From Chloroflexota bacterium (lineage in GTDB: Bacteria > Chloroflexota > Anaerolineae > JACRMK01), in the NCBI GenBank assembly GCA_016235055.1, contig JACRMK010000056.1, positions 23,359 through 87,358 on the forward strand: a stretch of DNA of 64,000 nucleotides, read 5' to 3'. Both the position numbers and the translations under genes were made by a program. Position 1 is the stretch's first letter, and every line of letters starts with the position of its first letter. The notes under the pieces were generated by a model. That model was given only the letters and a program-made list of their open reading frames with translations, did not search any database and was not told the DNA's origin. Positions 3,053 through 59,470 of the stretch are shown here, in pieces.

Positions 3053-3811
3053 ATGTTCTCACTGGACGGCAAGATTGCACTGGTCACCGGCGGCGCGCGA
3101 GGGCTGGGTCGCGCCGATTGTCTCGCACTGTCCGAAGCCGGTGCGCGCGTCGTGGCGGCGGACGTCAACGAGACGGGCGCCGAGAACACGGCCGAGATGG
3201 CGCGCGCCATGGGGCGCGATGCGCTTGCGCTGAAAGTCGATGTGCGCGACCGCGCGCAGGTCAAGGCGATGATCCAGCGCATCAAGCAGGAGTTCGGCGC
3301 GGCGCCGGACATCCTGGTCAACAATGCGGCCACGCTCGACAACACAGCGCAGGTGCAGGACATGCCGGACGAGTTGTGGGATCGCGACATCGCGGTAAAC
3401 CTGACCGGCGCGTATAACGTGACCAAGGCGCTCTGGCCCGAACTGATGGCCAAGAAGTGGGGACGCGTCATCAGCATGGCGTCGGTGGCGGGCACCATGG
3501 GCGGCTTCGGCCAGGCGAGCTATGCGGCGACGAAGGCCGCGCTGATCGGCTTCACGCGGACGCTGGCGCTCGAAGGCGCGCGGCACGGCATCACCGCCAA
3601 CGCCATTGTCCCCGGCATCATCGGCACCGAGGCGTTCGGCAAGATCCCGGATGCGATGCGCGACCGCATGCGCGCGCGCGTGGCGATGCGCCGCGAAGGC
3701 GAACCGCGCGACATTGCGACCCTGGTCGTTTTCCTGGCATCGCCGGAAGCGCGCTATATCACGGGCGCGGCCGTTCCGGTCACCGGTGGACTGCACCTGT
3801 TCACGTTTTAG
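3053..3811 (+). CDS. SDR family oxidoreductase (FabG-like 3-oxoacyl reductase type)
   Basis: TGGARGLG Rossmann motif, NNAA and the catalytic Y-x3-K (SYAATKAAL). GGAGG-like RBS gcggaggcgag precedes the ATG. Confidence 0.9.
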   Translation: MFSLDGKIALVTGGARGLGRADCLALSEAGARVVAADVNETGAENTAEMARAMGRDALALKVDVRDRAQVKAMIQRIKQEFGAAPDILVNNAATLDNTAQVQDMPDELWDRDIAVNLTGAYNVTKALWPELMAKKWGRVISMASVAGTMGGFGQASYAATKAALIGFTRTLALEGARHGITANAIVPGIIGTEAFGKIPDAMRDRMRARVAMRREGEPRDIATLVVFLASPEARYITGAAVPVTGGLHLFTF

Positions 3812-3850
3812 TCCAGACTCTGCTGCCCCTGGTGACTACCCATATCAACC

Positions 3851-3883
3851 AGACCTCGCGGGTTTTGAATACCCGCGAGGTCT
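3851..3883 (+). terminator. perfect 13-bp stem-loop directly after the SDR stop (terminator-like, no U-tract)
   Basis: agacctcgcgggt-tttgaat-acccgcgaggtct. Confidence 0.35.
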
Positions 3884-3931
3884 TGAGGCGCGACATCCGC
3901 GCAGATGTGGGCGATCACCAGTCGGCCTCGG

Positions 3932-3961
3932 TTGCGGCCGGTCGGCAGGCCGGTATATAAT
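3932..3961 (+). promoter_or_regulatory. sigma70-like promoter (TTGCGG - 18 nt - TATAAT)
   Basis: gTTGCGGccggtcggcaggccggtaTATAATag. Lies in a locally AT-richer 540-bp non-coding gap. Confidence 0.4.
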
Positions 3962-4092
3962 AGACTCTATTCGAAATAAGGGATCCACCATTCTGAGCTT
4001 GTCGGAGCATGCGGAAAAGTGGCTAGTACCAGTGCTTTGACCGCATGCTTCGACAGGCTTACGATGCTACGTCGCTATTTCAGATAGAGTCT
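3962..4092 (+). ncRNA. candidate structured 5' leader / cis-regulatory RNA (unclassified)
   Basis: The terminal arms agactctat (3962-3970) and atagagtct (4084-4092) can close a long-range helix. An inner helix cttgtcggagcatgcgg / ccgcatgcttcgacagg (15 of 17 complementary) is also possible. The element ends 1 nt before ATG 4094. Confidence 0.3.
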
Positions 4093-4093
4093 A

Positions 4094-4306
4094 ATGCCCG
4101 TGGAACAAAAACCGGGACGCCCGTATCCGCTCGACCCGGTCGGTCTGTGCGCGCTCTGCGCCCACCATCGCGTGATCGAATCGACCAAAGGCAGCCATTT
4201 CTGGCTGTGCGCATTAAACGTGCAGGATGCACGTTTCCCGCGCTATCCGCGCCTGCCGGTGCTGGTCTGCGAGGGGTTCGTTCCCTCACCTTCCGGCGAT
4301 AGATAA
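4094..4306 (+). CDS. small Cys-rich hypothetical protein (70 aa; CxxC ... FWLC ... VC)
   Basis: ORF immediately after the structured leader. Its 5 Cys include a CALCAHH motif, a possible metal-binding miniprotein. No family assigned. Confidence 0.35.
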   Translation: MPVEQKPGRPYPLDPVGLCALCAHHRVIESTKGSHFWLCALNVQDARFPRYPRLPVLVCEGFVPSPSGDR

Positions 4307-4350: not shown

Positions 4351-5238
4351 ATGGCCCTGAATCTAAGTGGAGTTTTCCCCGCCTGCGTCACCCCCTACGA
4401 CGCCGACGGCAACGCTTCGCCCAAGCGCTTTGCGGCGAACGTCGCGCGCTGGGAGAAGGCCGGACTGCACGGCTACCTGGTGCTCGGCTCGACCGGCGAG
4501 TTCCAGTACATGGACGAAGCCGAGCGCGGCAAGCTGATCGAAGGCGCGCGCGCGGCGATCCCGGCCAACAAGACGATGATGGTCGGCGCCGGGCACGAGA
4601 CCACGCGCATGACGATCCGCTACTGCAAGCAGGCCGCGTCGCTCGGCGCGGACTGCGTGCTGGTCGTGACGCCGGTCTACTACACGCGCGGCAAGGAAGA
4701 CGCCCAGCGCAAGTATTACTTTGACGTCGCCGACGCCTCGCCGATCCCGGTGCTGGTTTACAACGTGCCGGGCTTCACGGCGTACAACATCTCGCCGGAG
4801 TTCGTCGCCAGCGTGTCCGGCCACCCGAACATCGTCGGCATGAAGGACAGCGCGGGCGATGCCGGGCAGATCTTCGACACGATCCGACTGACCGACCCGA
4901 ACTTCGCGGTTTTCACCGGTAATGCGCGCATCCTGTACCAGACGCTGGCTGTCGGCGGGCGCGGCAGCATCCTGGCCGCGGGCAACCCGCTCGGCCACGC
5001 CTACGTAGGGATATACGAAACGTTCAAGCGCGGCGATACGGCCTCCGCGCTGGCCCAGCAGAAGGAGGTCCGCGCGGCGGAGCAGAAGCTCAGCGCGTTC
5101 GGCATCGCCGGCTGGAAGTACGCGATGGACGTGATGGGCTGGGAGGGCGGCGAACCGCGCCTGCCGATCCTGCCTTTGGGCGACGAGGCGAAAGCCAAGA
5201 TTCGCGCCATCATGGAGTCGCTGAAGCTGGCGGCGTAG
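4351..5238 (+). CDS. dihydrodipicolinate synthase / N-acetylneuraminate lyase family protein (DapA-like class I aldolase)
   Basis: FPACVTPY...GYLVLGSTGEFQYM...YNVP...MKDS, with the Schiff-base lysine in the MKDS context. RBS aggagaaatcaATG. Confidence 0.9.
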   Translation: MALNLSGVFPACVTPYDADGNASPKRFAANVARWEKAGLHGYLVLGSTGEFQYMDEAERGKLIEGARAAIPANKTMMVGAGHETTRMTIRYCKQAASLGADCVLVVTPVYYTRGKEDAQRKYYFDVADASPIPVLVYNVPGFTAYNISPEFVASVSGHPNIVGMKDSAGDAGQIFDTIRLTDPNFAVFTGNARILYQTLAVGGRGSILAAGNPLGHAYVGIYETFKRGDTASALAQQKEVRAAEQKLSAFGIAGWKYAMDVMGWEGGEPRLPILPLGDEAKAKIRAIMESLKLAA

Positions 5239-6271: not shown

Positions 6272-6919
6272 TTGATGATCAAGACCATTCTGTTTGACGT
6301 GGACGACACACTGTACCCGCGCTCATCCTCACTGTTCCCGATGATCCGCAACAAGATCATCCAGTACATGATCGACTACCTGGGACTGAGCCGCCCGGAG
6401 GCGATGACGCTTCGCGAACGCTACCTCAAGGAATACGGCACGGCGACGCGCGGCCTGATGATCAACGACCACATCAACGTTCACGAGTACCTCGCCTACG
6501 TCCACGATGTGCCGGTCTCAGAGGCATTGCAACCCGACTCCGAACTCGACGCTATCCTGGGGCAGATCAACGTCGAGAAGTGCCTGTTTACCAACGCCAC
6601 GCGGCAGCACGGTATCAACGTCGTGGAGGCGCTGGGCATCACGCGGCGCTTTACGCGCGTGTTCGGACTGGAAGATTTCAACTATATCAGCAAGCCCGAC
6701 CCGCGCCCCTATCAGGTAGCGCTTGCCACGCTGGGCGTGCCCGGCGCGGAGGTTGCGCTGCTGGAAGACAGCCCGGTCAATCTGGAAGCCGGGCGCGCCG
6801 CCGGCATGACGTCGATTCTGGTTGGCGATGCACCGTACGCCGGCCCGACATTTGACTACCACATCGCGCGCGTGCACGATGTGCTGGCGGTCGCACGCCG
6901 ACTGGGAGTTGCCACATGA
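6272..6919 (+). CDS. HAD-superfamily hydrolase (subfamily IA, nucleotidase-like)
   Basis: Motif I FDVDDTLY and a C-terminal LEDSPVNLEAGRAAGM (motif III/IV). Confidence 0.85.
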   Translation: MMIKTILFDVDDTLYPRSSSLFPMIRNKIIQYMIDYLGLSRPEAMTLRERYLKEYGTATRGLMINDHINVHEYLAYVHDVPVSEALQPDSELDAILGQINVEKCLFTNATRQHGINVVEALGITRRFTRVFGLEDFNYISKPDPRPYQVALATLGVPGAEVALLEDSPVNLEAGRAAGMTSILVGDAPYAGPTFDYHIARVHDVLAVARRLGVAT

Positions 6920-7887
6920 TCAACGCCTACGCTCGCCGGACCGACGCCAACGGGCGCGTGAACGAAGCGCGCGCGGTGCCTGTCGAAGAAGGACTCGCCC
7001 TTCTTTCCGCGCCCGGCGGCCATGTCTGGTTCGACGTGATCGCCGAGTCCGAGGCCGACTTCGCCTGGTTGGAGCAGTCGTTTCATTTCCACCCGCTGAC
7101 CATTGACGACTGCCGCCAGCACGACGCGCGCGCCAAGATCAGCGACTACGACGGGTACCTGTTCATCACGCTGCACACGCCGATCGTCAACGCCGACGAG
7201 ACGACCAGCGACGAAATCCACGTCTTCCTGAGCGAGCGCTATTTCGTCACGGTCCACGACACGCCGAACTCCGTGATCACTGCGCTGGTCGAAATCCAGT
7301 CCAAGAACTTCCAGTTGAGCGAATGGGGCACATCGTTCTTGTTCTACCGGCTCGGCGACCTGGCCGTCGACGCCTACTTCCCGGTCCTCGACGAGGTCGC
7401 CGACCGGGTCGACGATCTCGAAGACCAGATCGTCAATGTCGCGACGCGCGACCAGTTATCCGGCATCTTCACGCTGAAGCGCGACCTCGTCTTCCTGCGC
7501 AAGACGCTCGGACCGATGCGCGAGGTGTTCAACGCATTGCTCATCCGACGCTACCCGCTGATCGATGAGCGATCGCTCGTCTACATGCGCGACGTGTACG
7601 ACCACGTCGTGCGGTTCTACGACATCATCGACACCTACCGCGACCTTGCCAGTTCGGCGCTCGACACCTATCTTTCCAGCGTGTCAAACAATCTGAACGA
7701 CGTGATGAAGCGCCTGACGATCATCACGACCATCTTCATGCCGTTGACCTTTGTGACTGGGTTCTTCGGCATGAACTTCCAGCACCTGCCGTTCGACAGC
7801 GACATCATATTCTGGGTCGCCATGACCACCATGCTGGGCAGCGCCGTTGGAATGCTGATATTCTATCGCCGCAAAGGCTGGCTCTAG
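6916..7887 (+). CDS. corA: magnesium/cobalt transporter CorA
   Basis: C-terminal two TM helices with the signature FMPLTFVTGFFGMNF (GMN motif). 4-nt overlap with the upstream gene. Confidence 0.9.
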   Translation: MINAYARRTDANGRVNEARAVPVEEGLALLSAPGGHVWFDVIAESEADFAWLEQSFHFHPLTIDDCRQHDARAKISDYDGYLFITLHTPIVNADETTSDEIHVFLSERYFVTVHDTPNSVITALVEIQSKNFQLSEWGTSFLFYRLGDLAVDAYFPVLDEVADRVDDLEDQIVNVATRDQLSGIFTLKRDLVFLRKTLGPMREVFNALLIRRYPLIDERSLVYMRDVYDHVVRFYDIIDTYRDLASSALDTYLSSVSNNLNDVMKRLTIITTIFMPLTFVTGFFGMNFQHLPFDSDIIFWVAMTTMLGSAVGMLIFYRRKGWL

Positions 7888-8076
7888 CCACATTCGCCAA
7901 GGGGTATTACGCACAACTGGCGGAATTGTCGCATATCGGCGTCAGCGTAGGGACAGTTCGCGACACCCCAAAGGGTGCGATGCTCGGCCGCCCGGCCCGC
8001 GGGCGCATCGCGATGCGCCCCTACATTGCGCCAAACCGGTGTGCCCGACAGTTTGGCGGCAAAGTCTCGCCAAGTA

Positions 8077-8333
8077 CAGCAATTCTCATTTTGGAGTCGG
8101 CTGCCACTATGCCCCCTCATCCCCTGCCCCTTCTCCCCCGCGGGGGAGAAGGGGAAAAGCTAACGGGGAGGTGCGCGGCGGCTGCGCCGCCGCGTCAATC
8201 CCCTATGAATCTCGCCCCCTCCCAACTTCGTTGGGAGGGGGTCGGGGGGAGGGCAGCGCCACTTCTTCGGCGGGCCAGCGCATCGCGAGCGGCGTTGAAA
8301 AGTACCCGTCCAAAGCCAAATTGAGAATTGCTG
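8077..8333. mobile_element. TIR-bounded palindrome-rich miniature element, copy 1 (257 bp), flanked by a 9-bp direct repeat CGCCAAGTA
   Basis: Termini cagcaattctcattttgg ... ccaaattgagaattgctg are inverted repeats. CGCCAAGTA occurs at 8068-8076 and 8334-8342. The interior has three GC-rich palindromes. Confidence 0.7.
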
Positions 8334-8364
8334 CGCCAAGTAACCGTTTTACGACCTCGGCGTG

Positions 8365-8377: not shown

Positions 8378-9736
8378 GTGAAGACCACGCTCATCCGCCA
8401 CGCCCATCTGGTCGCGACGTTTGATGACCGGCGACGCGAGATCCGAGACGGCGCAATCCTCGTGCGCGGCCATCTGATCGAGCAGGTCGGCGCGACGTCT
8501 GAGTTGCCATCCGGGGCCGACGAGACCATCGATGCGCGCGATCATGTCATTATCCCCGGCCTGATCAACTGCCATCACCACCTGTATCAGACGTTGACTC
8601 GCGCGGTGCCCGGCGCGCAGGATGGCACGCTCTTCCAATGGCTGGTCACGCTCTACCCGATCTGGGCCAATCTGACGGCGCAGGCTATCTATATTTCAGC
8701 GCTGACCGGTCTGAGCGAGCTGCTGTTGAGCGGCTGCACGACAGTCGCCGACCACCTCTACATCTACCCGAACGGCGCGCGCATCGACGACGAGATTCGC
8801 GCCGCACAAGAGATCGGCGTGCGCTTCCACCCGACGCGCGGCAGCATGTCGCTAGGCGAATCGCAGGGCGGCCTGCCGCCGGACCGGGTCACTGAGAACG
8901 AAGAGGCGATCCTGCGCGACACGCGCCGGGCCATTGAAGCGTACCACGACCCGGCGCCGTACTCGATGTGCCGCGTTGGCGTGGCGCCGTGCTCGCCGTT
9001 CTCGGTCACGACCGACTTGATGCGCCAGTCGGCGGAACTTGCGCGCGCTTATGGCGTGCGCTGCCACACCCATCTGGCCGAGACCGCCGACGAAGACCAG
9101 TTCTGTCTCGAGAAGTTCGGCCGCCGCCCGCTCGAGTACGCCGAGGATGTCGGCTGGGTCGGCGACGATGTCTGGTACGCTCACGGGGTGTGGTTCGACC
9201 CGGCGGAGATCGGTCGCATCGGCCGGTCGGGCAGCGGCATCGCACACTGCCCCACCTCCAATATGCGCCTCGGGTCCGGCGTCGCGCCGCTGTTGAACTG
9301 GCTATCCCACGGCGTCAAGGTCGGGCTCGGTGTGGATGGCAGCGCCAGCAACGATTCCGGCCATCTGCTGGCCGAAACGCGCCAGGCGATGCTGCTGCAG
9401 CGCGTGACGCATGGCCCGGCCGCGCTGACCGCGCGCCAGGCGCTGGAACTCGGCACGCGCGGCGGCGCGGCGGTGCTCGGCCGCACGGATATCGGCGCGC
9501 TCGCGCCCGGCATGGCGGCCGATCTGGCGATGTTCGACCTGAACCAACTCGCCTATGCCGGCGCATGGCACGACCCGCTGGCCGCGCTCGTCTTCTGCGC
9601 GCCGCAGACCGCCAGCCTGGTGATGGTCAACGGCCGCTTGGTGGTCCGCGAGCAGCATCTCACGACAATTGAACTCGGCCCCGTGATCGAGCAGCACAAC
9701 CGCATTGCGCGGGCCATGGTCGACGGTCCGCGCTAG
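8378..9736 (+). CDS. amidohydrolase-superfamily deaminase, 8-oxoguanine deaminase / SsnA-chlorohydrolase type
   Basis: PGLINCHHHLYQTLTR metal-binding HxH, then HLAET, CHTHLAET and a VGLGVDGSASND aspartate loop. The start is reset to GTG 8378 because the longer ORF 8039.. is translated through the repeat element. Confidence 0.85.
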   Translation: MKTTLIRHAHLVATFDDRRREIRDGAILVRGHLIEQVGATSELPSGADETIDARDHVIIPGLINCHHHLYQTLTRAVPGAQDGTLFQWLVTLYPIWANLTAQAIYISALTGLSELLLSGCTTVADHLYIYPNGARIDDEIRAAQEIGVRFHPTRGSMSLGESQGGLPPDRVTENEEAILRDTRRAIEAYHDPAPYSMCRVGVAPCSPFSVTTDLMRQSAELARAYGVRCHTHLAETADEDQFCLEKFGRRPLEYAEDVGWVGDDVWYAHGVWFDPAEIGRIGRSGSGIAHCPTSNMRLGSGVAPLLNWLSHGVKVGLGVDGSASNDSGHLLAETRQAMLLQRVTHGPAALTARQALELGTRGGAAVLGRTDIGALAPGMAADLAMFDLNQLAYAGAWHDPLAALVFCAPQTASLVMVNGRLVVREQHLTTIELGPVIEQHNRIARAMVDGPR

Positions 9737-17442: not shown

Positions 17443-18675
17443 ATGAGCCCTGACATCACCCAAGAAATCCGGTCGCTCGTCGCCCAGCGGCGCGACTCGA
17501 TGATCCGGTTCTTCCGCGATATCTGCGCGATTCCGTCGTACGACTCGCAGATCGGCCCCGTGGGCGAGCGCGTCGGCCAGGAGATGCGCGCCCTCGGCTT
17601 CGACGAGGTGCGCTTCGACAAGATGGGCAATATCCTGGGCCGCATCGGCAACGGGCCGCGCTGCCTGGTGTATGATTCGCACATCGACACCGTCGGCGTC
17701 GGCGATCCGGCCGCCTGGGAGTGGGATCCGTTCAAGGGCAAGGTTGAAAACGGCATTCTCTTCGCGCGCGGGGCATGCGACGAAAAAGGCTCGACGCCCG
17801 GCATGATCTACGGCCTGGCGCTCGCCCGACAGCTCGGTCTGCTGCACGGCTGGACCGCGTACTACTTCGGCAATATGGAAGAGTGGTGCGACGGCATCGC
17901 CCCCAACTCGTTCGTTGAGGTGGACCCAAGGGTACGCCCCGATTTCGTCGTCATCGGCGAGCCGACCAAGATGCAGGTCTATCGCGGGCACAAAGGGCGC
18001 ATCGAGTTGCAGATCACGGCCAGCGGCAAATCGGCTCATGCCGCGCACCATCACCTGGGTGACAACGCGGTGTACAAGATGCTGGACATCATCGCGGGCA
18101 TCCGCGATCTCGACGCGCAGCTGCCGAGCGACCCGTTCCTGGGCAAGGCAACCGTGGTTGTCACCGATGCTGAGGTGCACACGCCGTCCATCAACGCCGT
18201 GCCAGACCTGTTCAGTATCTTCATCGACCGCCGCATTACGTTCGGCGAGACGCGCAAAGGCATCGTGGAGCGCATCCAGGCACTGATTCCGGCTGAACTG
18301 CGCGGCGAGATCACGCTCAAAGAGATGTTCTACGACACGCCGAGCTACACCGGCTTCGTCTTCCCGATCGAAAAGTACTATCCGCCCTGGGCGCTCGATG
18401 AGACGCATCCCCTGGTGCGCGCCGGGCAACGCACGATGGCGCGTCTGTGGGGCGAAGCGCCGCCCACGGGCAAATGGGGCTTCTCGACCAACGGCACCTA
18501 CTGGGCGGGGAAGGCGCAGATACCGTCGATCGGCTTCGGGCCCGGCGACGAGGTCCACGCGCACACCACGCTGGACCAGAACAAGCTCGACGATGTGGTG
18601 CGCGCCACCGAATGGTACGCGCTTTTTCCGACCGTGTTGGCGCAACTTACCGCCGCCGTTACGCCGGAGTTCTAG
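17443..18675 (+). CDS. M20-family peptidase, YgeY-like
   Basis: HIDTV, ARGACDEKG and EPT...GHKG motifs, 410 aa. Confidence 0.85.
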   Translation: MSPDITQEIRSLVAQRRDSMIRFFRDICAIPSYDSQIGPVGERVGQEMRALGFDEVRFDKMGNILGRIGNGPRCLVYDSHIDTVGVGDPAAWEWDPFKGKVENGILFARGACDEKGSTPGMIYGLALARQLGLLHGWTAYYFGNMEEWCDGIAPNSFVEVDPRVRPDFVVIGEPTKMQVYRGHKGRIELQITASGKSAHAAHHHLGDNAVYKMLDIIAGIRDLDAQLPSDPFLGKATVVVTDAEVHTPSINAVPDLFSIFIDRRITFGETRKGIVERIQALIPAELRGEITLKEMFYDTPSYTGFVFPIEKYYPPWALDETHPLVRAGQRTMARLWGEAPPTGKWGFSTNGTYWAGKAQIPSIGFGPGDEVHAHTTLDQNKLDDVVRATEWYALFPTVLAQLTAAVTPEF

Positions 18676-18688
18676 CCGCTCGTTGTAC

Positions 18689-18719
18689 GCCCCGCACCGT
18701 GCCGGTGCGGGGCTTTTTT
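18689..18719 (+). terminator. Rho-independent terminator (11-bp GC stem + T6)
   Basis: gccccgcaccg-tgc-cggtgcggggc-tttttt, 14 nt after the peptidase stop. Confidence 0.7.
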
Positions 18720-18746
18720 GTTGCCCGCAAGCCGGGCCTCTGCATG

Positions 18747-19034
18747 CAGCAATTCTCAATTTGGCTTTGTACGGGTACTTTCCAATGCCGCTTGCGATGC
18801 GCTGGCTCTCAGGCGCTTGTCACGCAAGCTGGCCCGCCGAAAAAGTGGCGTTGCCCTCCCCCCGACCCCCTCCCAACTTCGTTGGGAGGGGGCGAGATTC
18901 TTCGGGGATTGGCGCGGCGGCGTAGCCGCCGCGCCAATCCCCGTTAGCTTTTCCCCTTCTCCCCCGCGCGCGGGGGAGAAGGGGCAGGGGATGAGGGGGC
19001 ATATTGGCAGCCGACTCCAAAATGAGAATTGCTG
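18747..19034. mobile_element. TIR-bounded palindrome-rich miniature element, copy 2 (288 bp, opposite orientation to copies 1 and 3), flanked by a 9-bp direct repeat CTCTGCATG
   Basis: CTCTGCATG occurs at 18738-18746 and 19035-19043. TIR cagcaattctcaatttgg ... caaaatgagaattgctg. Confidence 0.7.
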
Positions 19035-19146
19035 CTCTGCATGCGAGCGCCGCGACCGCACGGTGGTATCATATATCCAGGAAGAGTGCGTGCGGCTTCT
19101 CACCGATTGCCGTCGGGCACGGACACAGTGAGCCCGAAAGGAGGCC

Positions 19147-20106
19147 ATGATGCGGAGTTTTCTGGGCCGCGACATCCTGTCGCTGAAGGATTTCGAACGT
19201 GACGATTTCACGCGTGTCTTTCAAGTCGCCAAAGACCTCGAGCCGATTGCGCGCGACCGGCGCAACAGCGACCTGCTGGCGGCCAAGACGCTCGTGACGG
19301 CATTCTACCAGCCGAGTACCCGCACCCGGCTGGCGCATGAGGCGGCCATGCACCGGCTCGGCGGCCACGTGGTCGGGTTTGCCGACTTCAAGATGACGCG
19401 CGCCGGCGACTGGTATCAGGAATCAATCAAGGATACCGTTCGCATGCTCGAGTATTACGGTGACGCAATCGTCATGCGCCATTTCCTGCAGGGCGCGCCC
19501 GCCGAGGCTGCGCGCTGGGCCAGCGTTCCGGTGATCAATGCAGGCGACGGTTGGGGCGAGCACCCCACACAGGTGCTGACCGACTTGTACACTGTGCGCG
19601 AGGAGCGCGGCCGCATCGACGGCCTGACGTTCCTCTGCATCGGCGATATGCGCATGCGGACGATGCACTCCCTCTCGTATGCGCTCACCCAGTTTGATTG
19701 CCAGGCGATCTACGTCGCGCCGCCCGACATGTCGCTGACGGACGAGTTCAAGGCCGAGTTGCGCGAGCGCAACCTGCGTTTCCGCGAGGCAGAGCATGTC
19801 GCACAAGTGATCGATCAGGCCGACGTGATCTACATGGAGCCGGTCATCCAGGCCGACTACACGCAATCGCGCGTCGAGCACGCGTCCGAGCGGCCGCATA
19901 CGCCGGATAACTATGTCGTCAGCCGCGAACTCCTGCGTGACAAGGCGCGCTCCGATGCCATCATCCTGCACTCCCTGCCGCGCATGGACGAGTTGCCCGC
20001 CGACGTGGATGGTACCCGCCATGCGCGCTACTGGCAGGAAGCGTTCAATGGCGTTGTCGTGCGCATGGCGCTGCTGGCCTTGATCCTTGGCGCGGCTGAG
20101 CGGTAA
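19147..20106 (+). CDS. aspartate/ornithine carbamoyltransferase family protein (divergent, PyrB-like)
   Basis: The STRTR carbamoyl-phosphate motif and HPTQ are present. The C-terminal motif is LHSLP rather than the canonical HPLP/HCLP, and the 80s-loop region is atypical. Confidence 0.8.
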   Translation: MMRSFLGRDILSLKDFERDDFTRVFQVAKDLEPIARDRRNSDLLAAKTLVTAFYQPSTRTRLAHEAAMHRLGGHVVGFADFKMTRAGDWYQESIKDTVRMLEYYGDAIVMRHFLQGAPAEAARWASVPVINAGDGWGEHPTQVLTDLYTVREERGRIDGLTFLCIGDMRMRTMHSLSYALTQFDCQAIYVAPPDMSLTDEFKAELRERNLRFREAEHVAQVIDQADVIYMEPVIQADYTQSRVEHASERPHTPDNYVVSRELLRDKARSDAIILHSLPRMDELPADVDGTRHARYWQEAFNGVVVRMALLALILGAAER

Positions 20107-42628: not shown

Positions 42629-43600
42629 GTGAAACGCTACGAACTAATCACTTTCGGCGAAAATATGATCCGCCTTTCGACGCGCGACTACGAGCGGCTG
42701 GAACAGGCGCAGACGCTCGACGTCCGCCACGGCGGCACCGAAGCCAATGTCGCCGTGGGACTGGCGCGGCTGGGGCATCGCACCGCCTGGTTGTCGCGCC
42801 TGGGCGACAATGCGCTCGGACACCGGATCGAGCGCGACATTGCATCATGGGGCACGGACACCAGCCGAGTGATCTGGGCGCCCGACGAGCGCGTTGGCGT
42901 ATTCTTTCTCGAAGTAGGGGCAGGCGCGCGGGGGTCGTCGGTGCTTTATGATCGTCGCGACTCCAGCATGAGCCGCATGGGCGTCGAGACGTTCCCGTGG
43001 GAATGGCTTGCGGAGGCCGGGTGGCTGCATCTCACCGGCATCACGACGGCGATTAGCAGCAGCTGCGAGGAACTGGTGCGCGAGACGCAGCGACGCGCGC
43101 ACGAAGCCGGATTGACCGTGTCGTACGACGTGAACTACCGGGCCAAGCTCTGGACGCCGGAACGAGCGCGCGAGGTCGTCAGCCCGCTCTGCCGCGACGC
43201 CGACATCATGTTCATGAAGCATTCCGATGTGGAGCGCGTCTTCGGCATTCGCGAGGCTACCGCCGAGGATGACCTGCGCGCGCTGGCATCCCGCTTTGCG
43301 CGCAAAGTCGTGGTGATGACAGCGGGCGCGGACGGCGCGCTGGCGTTCGACCAGCAGAGCGGGCAGATCGCACGTGCCCCGGCCCACCCGCTGACGCACG
43401 TGGTCGATCGCGTCGGCGCCGGCGATGCGTTCGCGGCCGGATTCATCGCGGGTTATCTGGAGACCGGCATCGAATGCGGTCTGCGCATGGGCAACGCGAT
43501 GGCGGCGCTCAAAATGACCATTCAGGGCGACTACGCGCTCGTGTCGCGCGCCGAGGTTGACGGCCTGCTGGCCGGCAGGTCCGGCGGCATCAGCCGCTGA
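42629..43600 (+). CDS. PfkB-family sugar kinase (2-dehydro-3-deoxygluconokinase-like)
   Basis: GGTEANVAVGLARLG N-terminal motif and the C-terminal DRVGAGDAFAAGF ATP-binding motif. Confidence 0.85.
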   Translation: MKRYELITFGENMIRLSTRDYERLEQAQTLDVRHGGTEANVAVGLARLGHRTAWLSRLGDNALGHRIERDIASWGTDTSRVIWAPDERVGVFFLEVGAGARGSSVLYDRRDSSMSRMGVETFPWEWLAEAGWLHLTGITTAISSSCEELVRETQRRAHEAGLTVSYDVNYRAKLWTPERAREVVSPLCRDADIMFMKHSDVERVFGIREATAEDDLRALASRFARKVVVMTAGADGALAFDQQSGQIARAPAHPLTHVVDRVGAGDAFAAGFIAGYLETGIECGLRMGNAMAALKMTIQGDYALVSRAEVDGLLAGRSGGISR

Positions 43601-43604
43601 ACCG

Positions 43605-43892
43605 CAGCAATTCTCATTTTGGAGTCGGCTGCCAATATGCCCCCTCATCCCCTGCCCCTTCTCCCCCCGCGCGCGCGGGAGAAGGGGAAAAGCTAACGGG
43701 GAGGTGCGCGGCGGCTGCGCCGCCGCGCACCTCCCCTAAGAATCTCGCCCCCTCCAACGAAGTTGGGAGGGGGTCGGGGGAAGGGCAGCGCCACGTTTTC
43801 AGCGGGCCAGCTTGCGTGACAAGCGCCTGAGAGCCAGCGCATCGCAAGCGGCATTGGAAAGTACCCGTACAAAGCCAAATTGAGAATTGCTG
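43605..43892. mobile_element. TIR-bounded palindrome-rich miniature element, copy 3 (288 bp), flanked by a 9-bp direct repeat GCTGAACCG
   Basis: GCTGAACCG occurs at 43596-43604 (contains the TGA stop of the kinase gene) and 43893-43901. Confidence 0.7.
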
Positions 43893-43917
43893 GCTGAACC
43901 GTCGTCGCATTGACAAG

Positions 43918-43949
43918 AAAAGGCCACCATGGTGTGCATGGTGGCCTTT
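43918..43949. terminator. bidirectional terminator hairpin downstream of the HU gene
   Basis: aaaaggccaccatg-gtgtg-catggtggccttt with A-run and T-run flanks. Confidence 0.5.
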
Positions 43950-43967
43950 CGTGGCTGCGGAGTTGCG

Positions 43968-48483: not shown

Positions 48484-48554
48484 GAGCGGGTGAAGGGAGT
48501 CGAACCCTCGCCGCTTGCTTGGGAAGCAAGAGCACTGCCGTTGTGCTACACCCG
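48484..48554 (-). tRNA. tRNA-Gly (anticodon CCC)
   Basis: Manual fold: acceptor GCGGGTG/CACCCGC, D-stem GCAC/GTGC, anticodon stem CTTGC/GCAAG with loop TTCCCAA, T-arm GAGGG-TTCGACT-CCCTT. CCA is not encoded. Confidence 0.85.
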
Positions 48555-48567
48555 CAGACTGATTGGT

Positions 48568-58519: not shown

Positions 58520-59197
58520 GTGGGAGAGATCGTATCATTCAAGAGCAACGGCGCAAGCGCCGACGGGTACCTGGCGTTGCCGCCGGCCGGACACGGCCCG
58601 GCCGTTATCGTCATTCAGGAATGGTGGGGACTGGTGCCGCACATCAAGGACGTGGCCGACCGCTACGCGCAGGCCGGCTTTGTAGCGCTGGCACCCGACC
58701 TTTACCACGGCAAGGCGACATCGGAGCCCGGCGACGCCGGTAAACTGATGATGGCGCTGAACATCCTGCAGGCCGAGAAGGACCTGCGCGGCGCGGTAGA
58801 CTACCTGTTGGCGCACCCGGCTACCGCCGGCAAAAAGGTAGGTGTCGTCGGCTTCTGCATGGGCGGCGCGCTGTCGCTGTACGCCGCCAGCACGAACCCT
58901 GACACGGTCGGAGCGTGCATCATCTACTATGGCGGACACCCGAACGTCAAGCCCGACCTCGCCGCGCTGAAAGCGCCAGTGCTCGGCTTCTACGGCGAGC
59001 GCGATAGCGGCGTCACGCCCGCCAGCGCGCTCGCGCTCCAGTCGCAACTGCAGGCGCTCGGCAAACGCATGGATGTGCACATCTATCCGGGCGCCGGTCA
59101 CGCCTTCTTCAACAGCGACCGGCCGGCAGTCTACGACAAAGCGGCCGCCGAAGACACCTGGACGCGCGCCATGGACTTCTTCCGTACCAACCTGTAA
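58520..59197 (+). CDS. dienelactone hydrolase family protein
   Basis: GPAVIVIQEWWGL, nucleophile motif GFCMGG, C-terminal GAGHAF. Confidence 0.85.
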   Translation: MGEIVSFKSNGASADGYLALPPAGHGPAVIVIQEWWGLVPHIKDVADRYAQAGFVALAPDLYHGKATSEPGDAGKLMMALNILQAEKDLRGAVDYLLAHPATAGKKVGVVGFCMGGALSLYAASTNPDTVGACIIYYGGHPNVKPDLAALKAPVLGFYGERDSGVTPASALALQSQLQALGKRMDVHIYPGAGHAFFNSDRPAVYDKAAAEDTWTRAMDFFRTNL

Positions 59198-59246
59198 TAC
59201 TATTTCAACTAGGCCATGTCCTCATAGAGATAGTGCAAGTGCAAGT

Positions 59247-59400
59247 GCCGCCCCCTCATCCCCTGGCCCCTTCTCCCCCGCGCGCGGGGGAGAAGGGGAA
59301 AAACTAACGGGGAGGTGCGCGGCGGCTACGCCGCCGCGCACCTCCCCGGAGACTTGCTCCCCCTCCCAGCTTCGCTGGGAGGGGGCTGGGGGGAGGGCAG
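59247..59400. repeat. internal fragment (about 154 bp) of the palindrome-rich miniature element, lacking both TIRs
   Basis: Retains all three internal palindromes (cccccgcgcgcgggggag; ggggaggtgcgcggcggctacgccgccgcgcacctcccc; ccccctcccagcttcgctgggaggggg). It has no cagcaattctca termini. Confidence 0.6.
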
Positions 59401-59470
59401 AATTTGGCGGTGTGCCGTGTGCTCATGCGACATGAGGACATTTTCAATTTGAAACAGTATGATAACACAC

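Follow-up and report, generated by a model that had tools for sequence, protein, structure and literature searches.

Miniature inverted-repeat transposable elements of a Chloroflexota genome share their termini with insertion sequences encoding a predicted Tn5-like transposase of no curated family

We analyzed a stretch of 64,000 nucleotides from the genome of an uncultured Chloroflexota bacterium (assembly GCA_016235055.1, contig JACRMK010000056.1, positions 23,359–87,358 of the forward strand); this whole stretch is called the window below, and its coordinates are counted from its first letter. Three copies of a short element with inverted ends lie among the ordinary chromosomal (housekeeping) genes of the window, all of them intergenic. 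Copy 1 (8077–8333, + strand) is 257 bp long and is bounded by terminal inverted repeats (TIRs) at 8077–8094 and 8316–8333. Copy 2 (18747–19034, − strand, inverted with respect to copies 1 and 3) is 288 bp long with TIRs at 18747–18764 and 19017–19034, and copy 3 (43605–43892, + strand) is 288 bp long with TIRs at 43605–43622 and 43875–43892. An earlier examination made from the letters alone (the sequence-only reading) had described these copies as miniature inverted-repeat transposable elements (MITEs), and its coordinates and sequences proved exact to the base. The TIR of approximately 18 bp that it proposed was confirmed as well: within each copy, the two ends agree at 17 of 18 positions, the single difference being T or A at position 13, and the terminal 18-mer CAGCAATTCTCAWTTTGG has six matches in the window, 6/6 exactly at element ends, with 0.04 expected from shuffles.

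Each copy is flanked by its own perfect 9-bp direct repeat, as had been claimed, and these target-site duplications were read directly at all three sites: CGCCAAGTA at copy 1 (8068–8076 and 8334–8342, identical), CTCTGCATG at copy 2 (18738–18746 and 19035–19043), and GCTGAACCG at copy 3 (43596–43604 and 43893–43901). Three perfect duplications, each of a different sequence, rule out chance. The copies are 5–10% divergent from one another, and the mean column identity in their alignment is 90%. The interior contains a G+C-rich core of 150 bp (MITE positions 35–184; 43639–43788 on the + strand in copy 3) with an outer stem enclosing three long hairpins, and the 288-bp element folds far more stably than its shuffles (z-scores of −8.5 as DNA and −9.0 as RNA). 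Copy 1 lacks 5 bp from the loop of the first hairpin and a further 27 bp internally, and its hairpin 2 is broken; the 27-bp deletion is flanked by two GCCAGC direct repeats and thus resembles a slippage deletion. The open reading frames (ORFs) overlapping the copies are the typical spurious frames of DNA with 65% G+C, and the elements are non-coding. The G+C content of the window is 61–69% throughout, without a compositional break at the copies.

Insertion was evident at copy 3, the locus to which the empty-site comparison was confined. Copy 3 lies between a 2-keto-3-deoxygluconate-type sugar kinase gene and a small convergent HU-like gene: it starts four bases past the kinase stop codon, the TGA of which (43598–43600) falls inside the left copy of the duplicated 9-mer, and it is followed by a hairpin terminator shared with the HU-like gene. 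The two genomes with the closest kinases, L059 (GCA_040960765.1; 78% identity) and L060 (75%), were used as relatives. The gene order in L059 is large protein, kinase, HU, and lgt, and the shorter contig of L060 contains an upstream ORF, kinase, and HU only. Both lack the element and have only about 75 bp between the kinase and HU genes; at the stop codon, L060 contains a single GCTGAGCCG in place of the two GCTGAACCG repeats of the window. In the alignment with both relatives, the 288-bp element and one 9-mer form a clean gap, and the rest is colinear, including the downstream terminator hairpin. The sequence-only reading had suggested a search for empty sites with a single copy of the 9-mer, and such a site was found here; together with the features of the elements themselves, it upholds the identification of the copies as MITEs.

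Public short-read assemblies of this organism were consistent with a dispersed repeat. Logan contigs (SRR12113394, SRR12113397) encoding a CorA protein identical to that encoded beside copy 1 cross the left duplication and end 29–30 nt into the element, at the first base that differs among the MITE copies. Logan contigs with an identical kinase end about 27 nt into copy 3. This is the behaviour that assemblers show at dispersed repeats. A high genomic copy number, which had been proposed from the three copies in 64 kb, is plausible in view of these breaks at copies 1 and 3.

Nothing in the window encodes a transposase of the kind described below: a tblastn search of the 64 kb with the transposases of the family gave no homolog (best E 0.48), in agreement with the sequence-only reading. 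A distant-mode blastn search of a plasmid collection with the 288-bp element gave no match. Eight matches of the 18-mer in viral contigs were judged to be due to chance; the contigs have 41–52% G+C, no second end was present, and six of the matches were the same sequence.

The termini were followed outside the window with a 24-nt degenerate terminal pattern, which was scanned against 596 Gb of species-representative genomes (the source metagenome-assembled genome, MAG, was not included) and against a metagenome collection. The pattern occurs at 7 places in the genomes, namely in five Chloroflexota MAGs (Anaerolineae, Anaerolineales, and Thermoflexales), one cyanobacterium, and one Blastocatellia MAG, and at 30 places in the metagenomes. 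The majority of these matches are the ends of short TIR-bounded elements or of insertion sequences (ISs) of one transposase family; about a dozen, examined only in part, are single ends for which the partner end was not found. Pairing of the ends gave two kinds of elements, short (111–280 bp) and long.

The long elements are ISs. The same termini bound ISs with one long ORF in L024 (2–1654) and L047 (707–2337) and an IS of 2569 bp with one long transposase ORF in L028 (3239–5807); the three transposase ORFs are 437–455 aa long, those of L024 and L047 lying intact at 137–1453 and 926–2239. Full-length partner ISs measure 1.63–1.73 kb and contain a single transposase ORF without a frameshift. 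A decayed copy of 1443 bp with frameshifts was found in L021 (1332–2774), flanked by a perfect 9-bp duplication, GCGTGGCCC. A protein search with the ORF of L024 gave 6,756 clusters at E ≤ 1e-5, most of them on contigs of 1.5–2.5 kb, as expected of a repeated IS; the cluster closest to L024 (P0001) comes from other samples. Distant members with 54–58% identity (L049, L050, and L055) also form complete elements of 1692–1728 bp, with the ends CAGCAATTCTAAATTTGCC, CAGCAGTTCTCATTTTAGAG, and CAGCAGTTCTCAATGTGAC. They keep the pattern CAGCARTTCTMAWTKT, which indicates that the terminus travels with this transposase, and every full-length element found with these ends encodes it. Flanking 9-bp repeats with 0–2 mismatches were present at 11 further elements, short and long, from other metagenomes, one element having 10 bp instead. 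The statement that the autonomous partner must lie elsewhere was thus borne out by ISs with the same termini, a DDE transposase, and 9-bp duplications in metagenomes and Chloroflexota MAGs.

After 24 nt had been trimmed from each end, the short elements fell into seven MITE families without internal similarity to one another. The family of the window is one of these seven and was found only in this genome. No fewer than seven unrelated MITE families have arisen from the IS group.

Several of the sampled sequences have further features. The IS of L028 carries a passenger ORF of 291 aa (3377–4252) upstream of the transposase gene, with a Druantia DruA domain (PF14236, E 2.8e-31); its flanking 9-mers mismatch. 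The IS copies of L048 (1291–2982) and L049 (981–2672), from different samples, are 99.9% identical, and the 9-mers AATTGCTCT and GTCTCGTGG beside them are exchanged reciprocally; homologous recombination (an inversion or a deletion) involving two ISs that each had its own duplication at first would leave such a footprint. In L051 (2792–5626) and L052, the transposase gene is separated from the right end by two extra ORFs (HTH_23, DDE_3, IS630-like), which suggests a nested insertion; the IS copy of L051 is adjoined by a gene for a reverse transcriptase of the group II intron type. In L002, from a filamentous cyanobacterium, the terminus is matched once over 24 nt (4394–4417), some 100 bp upstream of an ORF of 376 aa interpreted as a CobW/COG0523-like GTPase. 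A second end was not found within 4 kb; the match may represent a solitary end or a relic due to chance.

The partner transposases, labelled "hypothetical protein" in public records, contain invariant D128 (in LALDGT), D217 (in LGDD), and E341, the last within the motif G-R-x-R-W-K-I-E-N-E-x-x-N-T-L-K. A CxxC...H motif directly after the first catalytic aspartate (alignment residues 140–157, L024 numbering) is also invariant and may bind metal. A hidden Markov model scan of 1.84 billion representatives gave 1,748 clusters (50% identity) at E ≤ 1e-30 and 6,617 at E ≤ 1e-10. An AlphaFold model built with 36 homologs had a pLDDT of 89 and a pTM of 0.89; its only low-confidence part, residues 340–357, spans the catalytic glutamate and a conserved lysine. 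Foldseek aligned the model with the Tn5 transposase over its whole length (E about 1e-9, TM 0.54–0.59, about 430 columns), and the modelled strands at 262–318 lie between D217 and E341, that is, at the position of the beta-strand insertion of the Tn5-like DDE fold. A sequence-profile search of solved structures with the transposase family found nothing.

None of the curated IS-family thresholds was reached, either by the 38 members analyzed or by ten more distant representatives. In Pfam, PF01609 matched 27/38 members (best 7e-7) and PF13808, the ISAs1-type N-terminal domain, 17/38 (best 1e-6), mostly below the gathering scores; these weak matches are ordered PF13808-like, then PF01609. The NCBIfam IS4 model NF033591 matched 31/38 members (best 3e-7), only over the C-terminal motif and short of its cut-off of 152 bits; the other IS4 models matched fewer members, and IS701 matched 7/38. 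The ISAs1 model NF033564 matched 4/38 (best 1e-3), far below its cut-off; one distant member scored 21.7 bits against the cut-off of 70, and the control, E. coli YhhI, scored 412 bits. Profile alignment with hhalign to YhhI and its relatives was marginal (E 0.0043, probability 8%, 275 columns) and colinear, covering an N-terminal PDxR, both aspartates, and the (R)x(R/H)WxIEN motif. Against the single IS4 (InsG) and IS186 (InsL) proteins, hhalign gave only a spurious match or one of 65 columns; single IS4-family proteins aligned at the C-terminal motif alone or failed to align.

The group shares with the IS4 family (IS50/Tn5, IS10/Tn10, and IS4Sa) the predicted Tn5-like fold over the whole protein, the single transposase ORF, and ends starting with CA. 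IS4 duplications are about 8–13 bp long (about 10 bp), against 4–6 bp in the emerging families; those of IS10 are 9 bp, of IS50 8–9 bp, and of IS4Sa, a subgroup with sizes of 1150–1750 bp, 8–10 bp (PMC2266710, Table 1). The length of the partner ISs lies within the IS4Sa range, and in the comparison of duplication lengths with IS families that the sequence-only reading had proposed, the 9 bp (10 bp in one element) fits IS10, IS50, and IS4Sa. By the definition of De Palmenaer et al. (2008, PMC2266710), membership in IS4 requires the whole Y-(2)-R-(3)-E-(6)-K signature in region C1. In the partner transposases, R-(3)-E is invariant, with R at E−4; unlike in IS4, the tyrosine position (E−7) is occupied by G in 32/38 members and A in 6/38, and the invariant lysine stands one residue further on, at E+8 instead of E+7. 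Thus, the transposase fails the complete signature, and no NCBIfam IS4 model comes near its cut-off.

The group resembles ISAs1 proteins such as YhhI in lacking the tyrosine and, tentatively, in the order of its weak PF13808 and PF01609 matches and in the colinear profile alignment. Unlike YhhI (378 aa), its transposases have 437–455 aa, and the similarity is marginal. The ends of ISAs1 elements start with CAGGG and their duplications are 8–10 bp long; the partner ends start with CAGCA(A/G)TTCT, with duplications of 9–10 bp. Failing both the IS4 signature and the ISAs1 model, the partner was filed under neither family. On its modelled fold, it is a Tn5-like transposase of the IS4 superfamily with ISAs1-like traits, the resemblance to ISAs1 being weak and lying in the N-terminal half, and it is assigned to no curated family; the group may already be named in ISfinder.

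The core of the elements was found a fourth time in the window, at 59250–59400 (+ strand), a partial relative that had been missed in the sequence-only reading. This copy is 87% identical to MITE positions 35–184 and has no CAGCAATTCTCA termini. It lies instead in a frame of 264 bp (59197–59460) with imperfect 29-nt inverted repeats, ATACTATTTCAACTAGGCCATGTCCTCAT and ATGAGGACATTTTCAATTTGAAACAGTAT, the arms of which are 79% complementary. The frame is intergenic, begins at the stop codon of an ORF (58520–59197), has TA on both sides, and occurs once in the window; it may be a second MITE type sharing its cargo with the first.

We conclude, with a probability of roughly 0.88, that the elements are MITEs moved by the DDE transposase of a full-length Tn5-like IS relative located elsewhere. 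They are short and non-coding, have TIRs and 9-bp duplications, face an empty site in the relatives at copy 3, and share their termini with ISs. Of an IS, such a MITE would retain nothing but the two terminal sites for binding and cleavage. A DDE transposase from a full-length relative would bind the 18-bp ends in trans and form a synaptic complex; the element would be excised or copied and then joined to a target cut with a 9-bp stagger, the repair of which would produce the 9-bp direct repeats. Cut-and-paste through hairpin intermediates is assumed by analogy with Tn5/Tn10. We infer that the identified transposase probably acts on these particular copies and that a functional copy of its gene presumably exists in this genome. 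That the duplications are perfect and the ends intact points to fairly recent movement; the 5–10% divergence and the deletions of copy 1 indicate that the family is not brand new.

Three observations weigh against this conclusion. The window contains no full-length IS of the family, and the transposase-bearing ISs with MITE termini all come from other genomes or metagenomes. Derivation of the MITE from a sampled IS by internal deletion was rejected, because the two have no internal similarity and share only 20–26 nt at each end, apart from one 35-nt match at 91%. Finally, the occurrence of the core in a different inverted-repeat frame and the compensatory changes described below are not predicted by simple neutral filler; the shared core is the one feature that the plain MITE model leaves unexplained.

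MITEs that descend from DDE-transposase ISs or depend on them are known in bacteria, such as Correia elements in Neisseria, RUP in Streptococcus pneumoniae, and Nezha in cyanobacteria. The present elements resemble them in being short and non-coding, in their IS-identical termini, duplication of fixed length, several dispersed intergenic copies, and strongly folding interior. They differ in belonging to an uncultured Chloroflexota bacterium and in their terminus, 9-bp duplication, and interior, for which those families offer no counterpart. Among the papers searched, none reports the terminal sequence in this context or MITEs of this kind from Chloroflexota.

The limits of the similarity between MITEs and ISs leave room for mobilisation by another transposase family, the shared termini being convergent or captured, as does the failure to find a partner in the same genome, of which the 64 kb of the window were searched. 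We regard this as very unlikely: the 7 and 30 pattern matches are mostly ends of short TIR elements or of ISs of one transposase family, all full-length elements with these ends encode the identified transposase, the duplication length is the same (9 bp), and the matches are concentrated in Chloroflexota, the phylum of the window. Another reading would be that the MITEs are immobile fossils whose autonomous partner has been lost from the genome. The absence of a transposase from the 64 kb, the divergence and deletions of the copies, and the existence of decayed, frameshifted ISs of the family elsewhere (for example, in L021) agree with it; against it, the perfect state of all three duplications and the intact 18-bp termini at 6/6 ends argue for fairly recent insertion, and a window of 64 kb says little about a genome of several megabases. 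Loss of the partner is unlikely, at something like a one-in-several chance. Recombinational repeats, or extragenic palindromes of the REP/BIME kind (repetitive extragenic palindromes and bacterial interspersed mosaic elements) spread by gene conversion or a RAYT-type tyrosine enzyme, would account for an interior made of a chain of long G+C-rich palindromes, for the siting of all copies in intergenic DNA beside terminators, and for palindrome loops flipped between copies (TTC vs. GAA). REP/BIME sequences, however, make no target duplication and are associated with the RAYT tyrosine transposase; here, perfect duplications that differ from copy to copy accompany defined inverted termini, and the same termini bound ISs encoding a DDE transposase. 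The orthologous empty site with a single 9-mer already largely refutes such an origin, and the length of 257–288 bp far exceeds that of REP units, described in one source as palindromes of 20–40 bp (PMC3733652). An origin of this kind is hardly credible.

A different question is whether the core is a functional cargo of the MITEs: a structured RNA, a terminator or insulator, or a DNA hairpin or G-quadruplex module (candidate GGGAGGGGGTCGGGGGGAGGG). Its recurrence within the 29-nt inverted repeats of 59197–59460 would fit such a role, as would its pairing. Sliding of the partners lowers the share of paired cells in the four cores from 95.9% to 53–64%. Both sides are changed in four pairs, three of them adjacent in hairpin 2 and one in hairpin 3, a result reached by only 13/500 shuffles. 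The sequence of hairpin 2 is AGGTG/CACCT in two copies, ATTGG/CCAAT in another, and a broken hybrid of both in copy 1; hairpin 3 reads CCCAAC/GTTGGG or CCCAGC/GCTGGG, with the loop as TTC or GAA. In copies 2 and 3, hairpin 2 together with the TTAGCTTTT that follows it has a terminator-like score on one strand. The compensatory changes, drawn from just four sequences, are only suggestive, and palindromes can stay symmetrical by DNA-level processes without selection. The copies have no common orientation relative to the neighbouring genes, hairpin 2 is broken in copy 1, no promoter-like site was found, and Rfam at permissive thresholds gave for the MITE only sub-threshold microRNA-precursor noise from generic hairpins. 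The long hairpins are probably element filler that does not serve the host, and a functional cargo is improbable. The core may be a transferable module recruited by both the CAGCAATTCTCA frame and the TACTATTTCAA...ATGTCCTCAT frame, and the partner transposases may constitute a separate IS family, highly abundant among environmental bacteria and missing from curated models. Taken jointly, a core selected for its structure as the cargo of two frames and an IS family standing between IS4 and ISAs1 make a tentative proposal that we hold to be possible, with the odds clearly against it.

Regarding the neighbouring genes, copy 1 lies between corA (6916–7887) and a gene for 8-oxoguanine deaminase (about 8381–9736), and copy 2 between a YgeY-like hydrolase gene (17443–18675), with its terminator at 18689–18713, and pyrB (19147–20106). 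An exact look-up of the YgeY-like protein gave no record. Strong hairpin terminators (18689–18713 and 43915–43950) stand only some tens of bases away from copies 2 and 3, and copy 1 adjoins two hairpins (8000–8055). Siting beside terminators may reflect a target preference or merely a tolerated location; the position of all copies in intergenic DNA by terminators is most likely due to the tolerance of such insertions. The idea that the element ends form hybrid promoters was rejected: none of the copies has a promoter-like site, either beside it or spanning it. At the gathering threshold, Rfam identified in the window only a tRNA (48485–48555, − strand), unrelated to the MITEs.

MITEs are a well-known, ordinary kind of element, and the general picture of bacterial MITEs is unchanged by the present case, which is a clean example with a previously un-annotated partner group. 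What goes beyond the routine is the size of this un-annotated transposase group, the seven MITE families with its ends, and a core found in two frames. Having a predicted Tn5-like fold and yet failing the IS4 signature and every curated IS model, the partner group may deserve a family or subgroup name. The pattern CAGCARTTCTMAWTKT combined with a 9-bp duplication provides a simple motif for finding MITEs, and ISs that annotation pipelines label "hypothetical protein". For this Chloroflexota lineage, the MITEs explain why short-read assemblies break at particular intergenic sites. The insertions, located at gene ends, lengthen 3' untranslated regions by 288 nt of very stable hairpins, which could affect termination or mRNA stability. 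If the core is indeed a functional cargo, these MITEs would be vehicles for functional DNA or RNA structure and not plain parasites.

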